Shown here in pieces: positions 1 through 28,427 of a DNA stretch of 38,926 nt. The notes under the pieces were generated by a model. That model ran no database searches and was not told the DNA's origin. It saw only the letters and a program-made list of their open reading frames with translations. Both the position numbers and the translations under genes were made by a program. This stretch comes from Eledone cirrhosa. Its lineage: Eukaryota. The stretch is from contig CAXHJY010000164.1 of assembly GCA_964016885.1 (NCBI GenBank), positions 1 through 38,926 on the forward strand, given 5' to 3'. Every line of letters begins with the position of its first letter. Within the stretch, counting starts at the first letter, position 1.

Positions 1-38
1 TCGAGTATGGTTTCTAATTAGTTGTCAAACTCTCTCTC

Positions 39-105
<67 letters not shown>

Positions 106-461
106 GTGTGTGTGTGCATGTATATATATACGTATATATATATGTGTGCGTGTATATATACACATGTGTGTGTGTGAATATATGTTCATTAGAAGTAATC
201 TCTTATAGGCTGCAGGCTTGTATCCGTAAATTCTGATGAGCTCAAAAATTAACGCATCGTTCCCCTACAGCCCGTAAAATATATAACTAATGAATACAAT
301 AAAACGTAGTACACTACATTCAAAGTTCTGTGTCGAGATGTTTCGTGAATTGCTCTGCTACTTACCCTAATCATACATAATGGGTGTGCGTATATAGATA
401 TACATATATATGCACACATATATGTGTATGTATATCTATATATATATATATATAAATATTA

Positions 462-561
<100 letters not shown>

Positions 562-636
562 AATATATTTTAAACGATATATATGTGGATATATCTATAG
601 AGAAACAAACTATTTTGTACACATATACAGACCAAA

Positions 637-738
<102 letters not shown>

Positions 739-788
739 GTATGTTTTACATATGTATTTAAATATATATATATCATTAGCTCATATGC

Positions 789-926
<138 letters not shown>

Positions 927-962
927 CAATAGACAAAAATTCATGTGGAACGATTTCTGCAC

Positions 963-1043
<81 letters not shown>

Positions 1044-1149
1044 TAAGTATGATCAATTAAGGCTACGTCAATGGAAGATGGACGGAAGATTCTGGAATAA
1101 ATTGAAGGCAATGATGATTTTAGTGTGTTACCTGTTATTGTATTAAATT

Positions 1150-1188
1150 GTCCTAATATTTCGGGTCTAAATCCCTTTATCAGAAGAC
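1150..1188 (-). ncRNA. Degenerate minimal type I hammerhead ribozyme motif (PLE-type)
   Basis: Minus strand reads GTCTT-CTGATAA-A-GGG-ATTTAGA-CCC-GAAATATT-AGGAC. Helix I is GTCTT/AGGAC, helix II is GGG/CCC, and helix III is the self-complementary ATAT. The core has a G>A change (CTGATAA). Confidence 0.5.
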
Positions 1189-1304
1189 TGCTTTTGCAAA
1201 ATACATACTTTTGAAACAAACTTATAATTTTCTTATCATTTGACCAACATTTTCTAAAACAAAGTTTCAATTAAACCATAAATCAACAATAAAAACAATA
1301 ATAA

Positions 1305-1426
1305 TTGTTTCTACTTTTGGCACAAGGCCAGTAAATACCCAGTGTATTACTGGTACTTTATCTTATCGACCCCGTAAGGATGAAAGGCAAAGTTAACCTT
1401 GGTGGGATTTGAATTCAGACCGTAAA
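1305..1426 (-). mobile_element. tRNA-derived SINE, 5'-truncated copy
   Basis: Reverse complement of the near-complete copy at 38566-38743 (tggcacaaggcc...tggtac...atcgac...aaggatgaaaggcaaagttaacct...atttgaa). Confidence 0.9.
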
Positions 1427-1849
1427 CTGTTGTCCCTTGAGGTGTCTGGGTGAGATCTGCAGTCAGCTTATGCAAACACAAATCACACCACCACCAGCAG
1501 CAGCACCACCACCACAACCACCACCACCACCAACACCAACACCAACAACAACAATAGCAGCAACAATAGCAATTACAAGAACGTCAAAGGGAGACATTAA
1601 CCAACTCAGCAGTGAATGTGTCACGTTGAATGTTTTAACGACGCCATTTTCAATAGTTATAAATTTTAACAATTTTCTCAACCTAGTTTTCTTAATTAAT
1701 TGAAGAGCAGAAACGATAACGGAAATGGAAAAACAATATACCCCCTCACCCCTCACCCACCACCTCACCCCTCACCTCACCTCACCCCACCCCACACCGC
1801 CAACTAAACCGTCAAATAATAATAATAATAATGACAATAGTAATAATAA

Positions 1850-1994
1850 TTGTTTCTACTTTTGGCACAAGGCCAGCCATTACCCAGTACATTACTGGTA
1901 CTTTATTTTATCGACTCCGTAAGGATGAAAGGCAAAGTTAACCTCGGCGGGATTTGAACTCAGAACATAAAGGGCCATAATTCTATGCTGCAGG
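1850..1994 (-). mobile_element. tRNA-derived SINE copy
   Basis: Same family. B-box GAGTTCAAATC on the minus strand, and an (AAT)n tract at its 3' end. Confidence 0.9.
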
Positions 1995-2060
1995 ACTCAG
2001 TCGTGTTTGTTCCTCGTATTCTTATTCTGCCAGTTTTGTTTTTGTAGTGGTAGTAGCACC

Positions 2061-2124
<64 letters not shown>

Positions 2125-2403
2125 ACAGTAGTAATAGTAGTAGTAGCAGTAGTGCAACTAGTAACAGTAATAATAATAATAGTAGTGGTAGTAGTAGTAG
2201 TTAAATTTGTTTTTGTTGTTGCCCTTCTTCGTCTCCTCCCCCTCCCCCTCCCACAACCTCCCCTCCCTCTCTCCCCCATCATACCAATTCCGATCTTATA
2301 AATGATTTGACTGTTTGAAACAAACGAGTTTGAGACAAGCTGAGAGGCCATAAAAACCACGGAAAGGTAATATTTCGTAAACGTTTTAAAAAGAGGGAGA
2401 AAA

Positions 2404-2860
2404 GTGTCAGATGGCGGCGTCGTCGGATGTGAGAGGAAGGAGAGAGAGAGGGTTGTATAGAGAGGAGGGAGAGTGTTAGATGGCATCGTCGTCGGATGTG
2501 AGAGGAAGGAGAGAGAGAGGGTTGTATAGAGAGGAGGGAGAGTGTTAGACGGCGGCGTCGTCGGATGTGAGAGGAAGGAGAGAAAGAGGGTTGCATAGAG
2601 AGGAGGGAGAGTGTTAGACGGCGGCGTCGTCGGATGTGAGAGGAAGGAGAGAGAGAGGGTTGTATAGAGAGGAGGGAGCGTGTTAGACAGCGGCGTCGTC
2701 GGATGTGAGAGGAAGGAGAGAGAGGGAGAGAGAGAGGGCTGTATAGAGAGGAGGGAGAGTGTTAGACGGCGGTGACGGAAACGACGAGAGGGGCGTGGTA
2801 AGAGAGAGGATGGAGAGAGAGAGAGGGGGAGAGTGTTAGATGGCGGTGTTGTCGGATATG
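2404..2860. repeat. ~69-bp minisatellite, 7 units (gtgttagaYggcggcgtcgtcggatgtgagaggaaggagagagagagggttgtatagagaggagggaga)
   Basis: Unit starts at 2404, 2473, 2542, 2611, 2680, 2759 and 2833. The last two units are degenerate. Confidence 0.95.
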
Positions 2861-2899
2861 GAGGGAGGTGCGTGGTGAGAGAGAGAGAGAGAGAAAGTG

Positions 2900-2963
<64 letters not shown>

Positions 2964-3267
2964 CGAGAGAAGAAGAGAGGGCGGCGATGGGGAGAAATAG
3001 CGGCAGCGGTGGCGGCGGCGTTTGTTGAGTTAATTTCAGGTATAATTAGTCAAACCCATTATTAGCCAGTAATTTGGCCGCCAACCCTCCCCTACACGCC
3101 ACGACGCCGCCACCAAACGAGAGGAAAGTAAATGAATGGAAACAAGTAAAATGTAGGAGTATAATTTAGAAGTTAATTTCCTTTGGTTTATTACCAGTTG
3201 GAGTAGAAATTAGCATTTAGCTGTCACAACAGCGATCTTTCAAACTACAACACTTTTGCTATAGACT

Positions 3268-3472
3268 TATACGAGGGTCGGCTGAAAATTTCATAGTCTG
3301 ACCAAGATCCTAAATTTTTGATACTATTCGCTACTTCCTTATACCACGGTCGGTTGAAAATTTCATCGGGTGACCAACATCCATGAAGGAAAATATTCGC
3401 TACTTCCTTATACGAGGGTCGACTGAAAAATTCAAGGTAAACATAGAACCAAGATACTCTCATGGAATGACC
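3268..3472. mobile_element. Three tandem copies (~70 bp) of a Tc1/mariner-like terminal inverted repeat
   Basis: TA|TACGAGGGTCGRCTGAAAA motif at 3270, 3342 (variant) and 3411. TA-preceded TACGAGGG..GAAAA termini are typical of mariner elements. No transposase ORF is present. Confidence 0.7.
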
Positions 3473-3513
3473 GGATAAAGTGTCTATATGTCTATGTGTA
3501 GATGTGGGTTTAT

Positions 3514-3570
<57 letters not shown>

Positions 3571-3627
3571 CCCACATCTACACATACACATATGTACACC
3601 CACATCTATACACATATATGTATATAC

Positions 3628-3760
<133 letters not shown>

Positions 3761-3971
3761 CATATGTATATACATATATACAAACAAACAGACATATACA
3801 TACACAGATATATACACACACACACATATATATATATAGACACACACACGCACATATATATATACACACACACACACATATATACATATATACATATATA
3901 TATATATATACAAAAACCCACATCTATATACATATATCTATACACAGATATACACGCATATATACATACAC

Positions 3972-4058
<87 letters not shown>

Positions 4059-4064
4059 CATAAT

Positions 4065-4199
<135 letters not shown>

Positions 4200-4316
4200 A
4201 ACGTTTGATATCTTAAATACGTTGTTAATAAGATAAGTTATGATATGAACCGTGTAAGATTAAGAACTTCTGTTGATGAGACTTCACAAATGAGATTCTT
4301 GCCCCCCCTCTCCCTC

Positions 4317-4449
<133 letters not shown>

Positions 4450-4477
4450 TATATACATATACCCACATATGTGTATT

Positions 4478-4526
<49 letters not shown>

Positions 4527-4657
4527 ATTTTTATATATATATGTATATATTTATATATATATATTCATACACACACACACACATATATATATATATTTAA
4601 ATATTTATACACACACACATATATATATATTATACACACACAAGACACACACACACA

Positions 4658-4735
<78 letters not shown>

Positions 4736-4737
<2 letters not shown>

Positions 4738-4992
4738 GTTATGTAATAAACGACATAAGATAATTATTTCATTTACCTGTGGTTTCTTGAAGACAGCTAT
4801 TTACATCTGTCTTCAGTCGTCAGAATGAATAAAATCTATTTTATTCATTCTGACGACTGAAGACAGATGTAAATAGCTGTCTTCAAGAAACCACAGGTAA
4901 ATGAAATAATTATCTTATGTCGTTTATTACATAACTAAAAAGCTCTGTAGCCTACATAGAGCACTCTTTTGCTTTACCTTTCTTATGGAAAT

Positions 4993-4997
<5 letters not shown>
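4736..4997 (+). mobile_element. Fold-back PLE/retrozyme-like end: perfect 100-bp inverted repeat plus ~60-bp tail, within (TA)n
   Basis: 4736-4835 is the exact reverse complement of 4838-4937 (2-nt spacer CT). The tail contains ctctg..atagagcact..tttacc. (TA)n lies on both sides. Confidence 0.8.
4841..4909 (+). ncRNA. Type I hammerhead ribozyme (mirror copy on the minus strand in the left arm)
   Basis: Helix I TTATTCATT (4841-4849) pairs with AATGAAATAA (4900-4909). Core CTGACGA at 4850-4856. Helix II TGAAGACAG/CTGTCTTCA. GAAA at 4887-4890. Helix III ACC-aca-GGT. Predicted GUA cleavage after 4899. Confidence 0.8.
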
Positions 4998-5038
<41 letters not shown>

Positions 5039-5149
5039 CACATACATATAAAGATATGCATATATATACACATATATAAACATAAATATATATACACATA
5101 TATAGATACATATACATACATATATAAACATACATATACATATATATAT

Positions 5150-5195
<46 letters not shown>

Positions 5196-5459
5196 GTATG
5201 TGTGTAAATATATATATATATATATATACATATATACATACATATATATGAAAGATATCCATTACAAGAAAGGTATCCATTAGATAACAGACGACACCAG
5301 CGCCCCTACCTCTCACCGTCTCCAGCTCCACCCCTCGGACAACCTTAATGGAATACTGAACAAAGGGAGATAACAGTCTTTTTTTAACCTAATGAGGAGA
5401 CATTCATAATATTGGAGGTGTATTTATTTAGTTTTTAATGGATTCCACACAGCAGGTAA

Positions 5460-5779: not shown

Positions 5780-5802
5780 TCTGTCATTACCGTAACATAA
5801 TT

Positions 5803-5896
5803 CTGACGAGCTTTTCATTCAAGAGCCGCACCAGATCAATACAGATCAAACCTTGTGAGCTGATCAATCGCGAAACGTGCGTCATACCTCAATAAA
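5803..5896 (+). ncRNA. Hammerhead-like motif with long helix II region, followed by AATAAA
   Basis: CTGACGAG-C (5803) ... GC-GAAAC-GTGC-GTC (5870-5883), then AATAAA at 5891. Helix I is poor. The island is bounded by TGTCATTA/TAATGACA and (TA)n. Confidence 0.5.
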
Positions 5897-5903
5897 TATA
5901 ATG

Positions 5904-5975
<72 letters not shown>

Positions 5976-7094: not shown

Positions 7095-7275
7095 CGTGTG
7101 TGTGTATGGATACATACAATGTCTTTTGACATTGATAAGCAACACGGGTCATTTGACAAATGTGGAATGTGGTGGCAAAAGTGGAGGACCGTATCACATT
7201 GATTTCCTTTCAGACATTTAGTGTTGCTTTAAAGAGACGCTGGGGAGATATTAAGGTGAAACGTGATAGACGTGG

Positions 7276-8140
7276 GTGTAAATTTCAAGATGGCCGCTAT
7301 GTGTTGTTGAAGATGTTGGCGACGCTGGTGTAGATTTCAAAATGGTGGCTATGTAATGTTGTTGACGCTGGCGACGGTGATGGTGAAGATTTCATGATGG
7401 CCGCTATGTGATGTTGATGATGTTGGCGACGATGGTGAAGATTTCAAGATGGCCGCCATGTGTTGTTGATGATGTTGGCAACGGTGATGGTGAAGATTTC
7501 ATGATGGCCGCTATGCGATGTTGATGATGTTGGCGACGATGGTGAAGATTTCAAGATGGCCGCCATGTGTTGTAGATGATGTTGGCAACGGTGATGGTGA
7601 AGATTTCATGATGGCCGCTATGCGATGTTGATGATGTTGGCAACGGTGGTGAATATTTCAAGATGGCCGCCATGTGTTGTTGACGATGTTGGTGACGGTG
7701 GTGAATATTTCAAGATGGCCGCCATGTGTTGTTGAAGATGTTGGCGACGGTGGTGTAGATTTCAAGATGGCCGCCATGTGTTGTTGATGATGTTGGCGAC
7801 GGTGGTGAAGATTTCAAGATGGCCGCCATGTGTTGTTGATGATGTTGGCAACGGTGGTGAAGATTTCAAGATGGCCGCTATGTGATGTTGAGGATGTTGG
7901 CAACGGTGGTGGTGTAGATTTCAAGATGGTGGCTATGTAATGATGATGTTGGCGACGGTGATGTAGATTTCAAGATGGTCGCTATGTAATGAGGATGTTG
8001 GCGGTGGTGGTGTAGATTTAAAGATGGTGGCTATGTAATGATGATGTTGGCGACGGTGATGTAGATTTCAAGATGGTCGCTATGTAATGAGGATGTTGGC
8101 GGTGGTGGTGTAGATTTAAAGATGGTGGCTATGTACTGTT
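7276..8140. repeat. 49-55-bp minisatellite, ~17 units, consensus atttcaagatggccgccatgtgttgttgatgatgttggcgacggtggtgaag (52 bp)
   Basis: Direct periodicity, with dimeric higher-order repeats of 107 bp (7441 to 7548) and 98 bp (7943 to 8041). Confidence 0.97.
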
Positions 8141-8163
8141 GGTGATGGTGCTGGTTTGCAAGA

Positions 8164-11195: not shown

Positions 11196-11313
11196 TAACG
11201 CTTGATATAGCAGATATACTCAGACATAGTATATCTGCTATATCAAGCGTTAACCTAATATATCCCTTCAATGTACTGTACCGATTGTGTTGTTTCTGTT
11301 TACCTTTTACATA
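11196..11313 (+). mobile_element. Short fold-back island: perfect 25-bp inverted repeat plus tail
   Basis: 11196-11220 pairs with 11228-11252 across a 7-nt loop. The tail ends tttaccttttac, like the 4938-4997 tail. It lies between TA/CA tracts. Confidence 0.6.
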
Positions 11314-13343: not shown

Positions 13344-13623
13344 GTTTCACTTTGATGGTGAATATTACACCTGTTTCACTTTGGAGGTGAATATTACACC
13401 AGTTACATTTTAGAGGTGAATATTACACCTGTTTCACTTTGGAGGTGAATATTACACCAGTTACATTTTAGAGGTGAATATTACACCTGTTTCACTTTGG
13501 AGGTGAATATTACACCTGTTTCACTTTGGAGGTGAATATTACACCTGTTTTACTTTGGAGGTGAATATTATACCTATTTCACTTTGGAGGTGAATATTAC
13601 ACCGGTTTCACTTTGGAGGTGAA
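13344..13623. repeat. 29-bp minisatellite, ~9.7 units (gtttcactttggaggtgaatattacacct)
   Basis: Exact 29-bp period. Each unit holds the near-palindrome AGGTG-AATATT-ACACCT. Confidence 0.97.
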
Positions 13624-13934
13624 AATTGGTATTTCCCATTATTTTGATATGTCTTGAATGAATATGGCCTTGAAAATGGTCGGAAATTAGCAAATAATCA
13701 TTTTGTAAAGGAGTTATGAAACAAAAACTGTAACTATACACTAAAAGCCACTTAAAACATTCAAAACATCAAAACATTAAAACGTCATAAATATATTCGC
13801 CACTCAAGAGAATTTCAAAACCACACCATTTAAATATGTCTTGATTACCTACCTTGGCGTATATATATCGATATAACTATATGTATGTATATTTATGTAT
13901 GAGTTCTCTCTCTCCCTCTCTCTCTCGCGCTCTC

Positions 13935-28252: not shown

Positions 28253-28427
28253 ATATAGATGAGATTCTACAGGACTAGAACTGCTTCATTCTTTAGAAAT
28301 CATCAGTGATTCCTGATGATTTCTAAAGAATGAAACAGTTCTAGTCCTGTAGAATATCATCTATATTATAACTTTTATACTCTGCTATTTATTGAGTACC
28401 TTACCTGCGATTCAACCCGGAATAACT

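Follow-up and report, generated by a model that had tools for sequence, protein, structure and literature searches.

The window analysed here is the whole 38,926-nt stretch of an Eledone cirrhosa contig, in which a crude scan of open reading frames (ORFs) gave no convincing gene and no evident host gene. Its longest perfect palindrome other than simple sequence lies at 4736-4937. The two arms, 4736-4835 and 4838-4937, are exact reverse complements of 100 bp each with 0 mismatches, and they are separated by a 2-nt spacer, CT (4836-4837); re-measurement thereby reproduced the perfect 202-bp palindrome of the original prediction. Base pairing ends immediately outside both arms, and the sequence beyond them is not symmetric. 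The element is longer than the palindrome first reported, with the right arm running on for about 60 nt (4938-4997) into a tail conserved in its family, and (TA)n bounds the palindrome on its left and right sides. The features, in order, are as follows:

4720..4737, no strand: (TA)n target microsatellite on the left, whose final TA is common to the element end, as read from the sequence.
4736..4835, minus strand: tail-less copy of the end repeat (pLTR), comprising the last 100 nt only of the element 3' end.
4764..4832, minus strand: hammerhead motif, the mirror of the plus-strand copy, with a predicted cut 3' of 4774 on the minus strand.
4836..4837, no strand: apex CT, the junction of two 5'-truncated copies; the apex varies among insertions.
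4838..4937, plus strand: inverted, tail-bearing copy of the pLTR.
4841..4909, plus strand: type I hammerhead motif with a long stem II and a 3-bp stem III, with a predicted cut after 4899.
4938..4997, plus strand: tail, where the element body begins; just one of the two arms has it, and at locus L073 it leads into an ORF.
4997..5027, no strand: (TA)n target microsatellite on the right, as read from the sequence.

A complete hammerhead core had been proposed for both strands, and a type I core was indeed found on the plus strand and mirrored on the minus strand. The right-arm core consists of CUGACGA (4850-4856), GAAA (4887-4890), and GUA with the predicted cut after 4899, surrounded by stem I (4841-4849/4900-4909), stem II (4858-4866/4877-4885), and stem III (4890-4892/4896-4898); the type I features, namely, a CUGANGA core, GAAA, UH, and three stems, are all present. 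Stem III is merely 3 bp long, and, as reported for hammerheads with such a short stem III, cleavage is poor and depends on dimers (PMC4209133). At the G10.1-C11.1 position closing stem II, C4857 stands opposite A4886 instead, followed by a U-A pair. The A facing C is invariant among 28 aligned family copies, the usual pair being missing family-wide; this pair is described as a conserved trait and not an absolute requirement (PMC4209133). The Rfam hammerhead models gave no match at the gathering score, and relaxing the search to E<=5 returned 66 sub-threshold matches of hairpin type and zero of hammerhead type. In 28 of the 124 copies, picked to cover the range of variation, the three stems are paired in 95.7% of cells, compared with 29-49% in slid controls, a percentage that is not a probability, as the copies are related. 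Two-sided changes occur at four pairs in these copies, three of them in stem II. Such conservation of pairing suggests that the hammerhead fold mattered to the active element.

The copy in the window carries three rare alleles within the hammerhead motif (G4869, G4876, and A4895), and its changes disrupt stem II and the dimer pairs without compensation. In folding predictions, A4895 favours a misfold in which the CUGA core is paired, makes the stem III self-duplex less stable (-3.9 instead of -8.2 kcal/mol), and leaves stem III pairing at 0.05 in the right arm alone, against 0.62-0.67 in the L007 copy. Because of A4895, the ribozyme is predicted to be weak even when no antisense is present, and the self-cleavage expected of a transcript starting at the apex finds no backing in the modelled fold, the right arm alone being predicted to misfold. 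For the full palindrome, the hairpin is favoured by about 150 kcal/mol (-161.8 vs. -13.0 kcal/mol), and in read-through RNA, the ribozyme is predicted to be silent owing to this hairpin. The idea of a ribozyme locked in a duplex can therefore be kept as a folding prediction, in that the antisense comes first in read-through from either side, with the ribozyme predicted to lie buried in the hairpin.

The palindrome arm belongs to a large family of Penelope-like retroelements, whose end repeat (pLTR) it represents. A 17-mer at the hammerhead start has 984 exact matches in the genome (control, 0), and a search of the 3.0-Gb genome with the arm gave 50 matches from the best 40 of 1599 candidates. 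The same motif stands head to head within 30 nt at 27 loci, where the control pattern gave 0. Since the apexes vary among these 27 tight loci, the palindromes appear to have been formed afresh at every insertion; on the same ground, a single amplified palindromic unit of the MITE kind was rejected. Among neighbouring pairs no more than 12 kb apart in the first 100 matches listed, 17/19 are head to head and 1/19 direct, and the spacers between head-to-head copies range from 0 to 7.4 kb. Searches of the main text of papers yielded no account of this family.

The ends of the copies fall at two sites 60 nt apart, one at arm position 100 and the other past the tail, and usually run into (TA)n. Tail-less arms elsewhere mostly stop at the same base and are then followed by (TA)n, which adjoins most of the family arms listed. 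One tailed and one tail-less arm were found in 40/40 scored pairs, as at 4736-4937, where the right arm is tailed; a scored pair is the closest divergent pair of a locus with both copies covering most of the arm, a definition that 40/79 loci provide. The 27 tight palindromes comprise 23 that are one-tailed and four that are interrupted by other sequence, with none two-tailed. At L020, both arms of an outer pair are tailed; this pair lies outside the score, which takes only the closest pair per locus. The possibility that tailed arms always end just upstream of stem I, as an RNA start would dictate, was rejected, their extents varying from a few to approximately 400 nt, although in tight pairs the opposite arm adds to the apparent extent. 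CT, AG, or CTAG recurs at the apexes of several loci, including those of the window, L044, L049, L054, and L060; these letters are missing from the usual upstream sequence and were possibly added at joining. Elsewhere in the genome (G000:C28:45837816-45856424), eight same-strand copies with an A-type loop III allele lie 2-4 kb apart as a tandem array of the hammerhead repeat.

The parent element is a Penelope-like element with an endonuclease, as judged from sequence at the level of the family: an ORF with reverse transcriptase (RT) followed by an endonuclease is joined to the end repeat at L066, L069, L071, and L073, and not at the 4736-4997 stub. L066, L069, and L071 each have an inverted tailed copy on one side and a direct tail-less copy on the other, flanking RT or endonuclease sequence that reads towards the tail-less copy. 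At L073, the hammerhead and tail lead straight into a broken ORF whose recognisable part starts well past the tail, while at L021/L033, the inverted tailed copy adjoins a 5'-truncated RT. The RT and GIY-YIG endonuclease domains of these ORFs were assigned from sequence motifs and look Neptune-like, a clade label that is tentative. A Pfam search of 10 ORF pieces from related loci placed no RT or GIY-YIG family above the cut-off; the protein assignment therefore rests on these motifs together with a lead from atlas neighbours of the L069 ORF piece, which point to PF26215, with GIY-YIG in 48% of the members of one cluster. Both L066 and L069 have a Cys-rich motif ahead of the endonuclease, a motif that would be expected of the Neptune clade between RT and endonuclease but is also found in Nematis (PMC8557442).

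A second copy of the locus, 99.5% identical, is present on contig C447, which matches window positions 1-5455 and has the same insertion, spacer, and flanks; a flank probe matches only this contig and that of the window (C191). The arms differ from each other at 0 positions in the window and at four in C447. Between the two contigs, the unique flanks differ at 11/2030 positions (0.54%), the right arm at 1/100, and the left arm at 3/100, the left-arm excess over the flank giving a one-sided Fisher p=0.025 in a post hoc comparison at a single locus. This second copy bears on whether the palindrome is a fold-back chimera of library preparation or assembly, as perfect arms on a small, unplaced contig might suggest. 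A chimera would hardly account for an equivalent insertion with four arm differences on another contig, for the asymmetric sequence beyond the arms, for arms that stop at the two end points usual for the family, or for a junction type common to 27 loci against a control of 0, and an artefact of this kind as the origin of the palindrome is extremely unlikely.

Perfect arms are uncommon, yet not extraordinary. In 38 other pairs, the arms differ at a mean of 3.74 positions and are perfect in 1/38, with a perfect pair expected by chance at approximately 2.4% (Poisson), and differences are alike in tight and wide pairs (3.77 vs. 3.69). The window copy departs from the family majority at four sites, G4869, G4876, A4895, and C4921, all rare alleles, which occur in 7, 4, 3, and 5 of 110 copies, mostly on the window and C447 contigs. 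G4869, G4876, and C4921 are present in all four arms of the window and C447, whereas at one of the three left-arm differences C447 has the family base where both window arms carry the rare A4895. Because the C447 left arm differs at 3/100 positions, one of them at the family allele against A4895, the comparison suggests that the right arm of the window was copied over its left arm once the two copies of the locus had separated; homogenisation of arms through template switching has been described in yeast (PMC8604942; PMC3820800). The original prediction had offered "very recent or homogenised" as alternatives, of which homogenisation fits the C447 comparison. The unpaired tail carries three substitutions in 58-59 nt relative to its closest sampled relatives, and with the rare alleles this speaks against the other part, such that the insertion of the palindrome is probably not very recent. 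A general homogenisation of tight palindromes was considered and rejected, as rare shared alleles are found in 1/22 tight and 1/16 wide pairs and arm divergence is equal. Separately, a head-to-head pair of a diverged subfamily (L094; G000:C5:102978172-102978367) has identical arms with common rare alleles.

Two other accounts of the perfect match were weighed against overwriting of the left arm. In the first, the insertion is real and the identity is an error of assembly or polishing that hides a true left arm like that of C447, since reads from one arm can map to the other. The window is a whole 39-kb unplaced contig with 0 arm differences against four at the matching locus, and such an error would look the same as an overwritten left arm; however, arms of 100 bp are short enough that typical reads should reach the unique flanks, L094 too has identical arms with a common rare allele, and template switching has been described as homogenising arms (PMC8604942; PMC3820800). 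In four sequencing runs, the family is present and carries the majority allele at each of the four diagnostic sites; among the matches listed, no piece spans this locus. Polishing error is thus a lesser explanation with a small but appreciable chance of being right. In the second, both arms were recently copied from one already diverged template and C447 gained its four differences later, as could be argued from the three alleles common to all four arms of both contigs and from A-type loop III alleles at 23 other places. Against a diverged template, no other sampled copy (124 copies at 79 loci, including the window and C447) carries three or four of the four alleles, the C447 left arm would have to revert to the exact family base, and three changes in 100 nt exceed the 0.54% divergence of the flanks; this account is considered unlikely.

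Taken as a whole, the locus is very probably an extremely shortened Penelope-like insertion, in which two hammerhead end repeats stand head to head in (TA)n, likely copied from two start sites, with arms likely homogenised later. The enzyme of the element would copy from two start sites approximately 60 nt apart, one for each cut target end; both copies would halt approximately 3 nt past stem I and then become joined. By analogy with the anole element, in which copying begins at one site on each side of the tail, mainly from uncut RNA (PMC11167929), the two copy ends may mark two starts of reverse transcription, and both target strands of that element are cut and extended in vitro (PMC11167929). 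The left arm would later have been overwritten by the right one via template switching or conversion, and the copy is now presumably passive debris. Palindromes have been noted at the head-to-head junction of such elements, and self-priming on an antisense template was proposed (PMC3846280). A fold-back route to the inverted junction is conceivable, but on its own it leaves two fixed, different arm ends unexplained. The layout of an inverted copy plus tail in (TA)n is already published (PMC8557442; PMC3846280; PMC4209133): an inverted 5'-truncated copy at the 5' end, with a 30-40-bp tail that is often confined to one end, and a bias towards microsatellites (PMC8557442), and hammerhead pairs on opposite strands 100-700 bp apart, with low activity and a need for dimers (PMC4209133).

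As retroelement debris of published shape, the single locus carries little weight. The one-tail rule in 40 scored pairs provides genomic support for the extension of both cut target ends from two start sites; PMC8557442 lists this step of Penelope transposition as unexplained. The C191 and C447 contigs offer a natural setting in which arm homogenisation of a 100-bp palindrome can be tested, and the hairpins, if transcribed, would be a large source of endogenous double-stranded RNA.

A built-in self-silencing switch had been read into the palindrome, a claim that the comparison with the family does not support: Penelope-type integration yields this layout as its standard by-product, and spacers reach from 0 to 7.4 kb. 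A selected switch would have the hairpin RNA block the ribozyme and feed Dicer/ADAR while RNA started at the apex self-cleaves. The hairpin is predicted to dominate, Penelope copies of a rotifer give antisense small RNA (PMC3846280), and such hairpins are numerous (27 in this family and 2801 in another), all of which a switch would accommodate; even so, the decay rate of the arms is equal whatever the spacer in that 0 to 7.4 kb range, the breaks in stem II and in the dimer pairs of the window copy are uncompensated, just 3 nt of repeat are left upstream of stem I, the crude ORF scan of the window turned up no evident host gene, and the small RNAs of the rotifer are mostly piRNA-like, with no tie to hairpins made in the passages drawn on here (PMC3846280). 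Selection for a switch is accordingly very improbable. A looser and speculative proposal, itself quite doubtful, is that Penelope-type integration seeded thousands of hammerhead hairpins that on read-through supply double-stranded RNA, which silences or is edited against the families they come from, with C191/C447 as a hairpin re-perfected by arm-to-arm copying, through which a ribozyme-weakening change spread to both arms.

Other repeats were recorded in the window and in C447. A second head-to-head palindrome of another family lies in (TA)n at 28253-28372, with a tail to approximately 28433, a hammerhead core of CUGAUGA, GAAAC, and GUA, and an apex at or within stem I; the tight junction of this family occurs at 2801 loci (control, 0), and a related copy is present in C447. 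A third repeat family with hammerhead-like motifs, for which there are 2929 candidates, is represented at 5780-5905 by one decayed copy; its relatives are approximately 85% identical, most of them having CCGA for CUGA, with an inverted partner in some of the top matches. Compared with the window, C447 has extra sequence within the right-hand (TA)n run (L031; G000:C447:59631-59980), made up of an inverted copy of the 4938-4997 type of tail together with a palindromic insert from a different family, in which the back half of a hammerhead is preserved. Between TA-rich runs at 11196-11252, perfect inverted arms of 23 bp flank an 11-nt spacer, with an extension on one side; this is possibly another stub of the same kind as 4736-4997. 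Minisatellites occupy 7275-8147 (52-nt period), 13344-13627 (29), and 2403-2724 (69).

Among known systems, animal non-LTR retrozymes (bioRxiv 10.64898/2026.07.22.740005) are likewise short, protein-less, hammerhead-bearing, and related to the pLTR of Penelope-like elements (PLEs). Theirs are described as tandem head-to-tail units (bioRxiv 10.64898/2026.07.22.740005), whereas the locus is one head-to-head pair, and the sampled family copies reach into the parent element with varied lengths. The locus does not fit a retrozyme, as tandem head-to-tail monomers are missing around its single head-to-head pair and only 1/19 neighbouring pairs is direct. PAc, the Poseidon element of Anolis carolinensis, shares two element ends bracketing the tail, AT-rich targets, and an uncut RNA template, which fits arms that retain the whole ribozyme, but its ORF begins within the hammerhead, unlike the family ORF well beyond the tail; in the sections of the PAc paper drawn on here, the inverted copy is left unexplained (PMC11167929). 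The hammerheads of metazoan PLEs are also of type I with a long helix II, an extra base after A9, opposite-strand pairs, and a short near-palindromic helix III suited to dimers (PMC4209133); in contrast, the present family has no G10.1-C11.1 pair in the usual place, where C faces A ahead of a U-A pair, and the window copy is without part of the dimer palindrome. The closest likeness in layout is to canonical endonuclease-bearing PLEs such as Penelope/Poseidon, Neptune, and Nematis, which have an inverted, 5'-truncated head-to-head copy, a one-ended tail, a microsatellite target, a hammerhead in the pLTR, and, in fuller copies, RT followed by a C-terminal endonuclease (PMC8557442; PMC3846280). 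Compared with these, the target-site duplication is unreadable inside (TA)n, the tail is approximately 60 nt instead of the published 30-40, and the body has been wholly lost at 4736-4997, so that two pLTR pieces touch.
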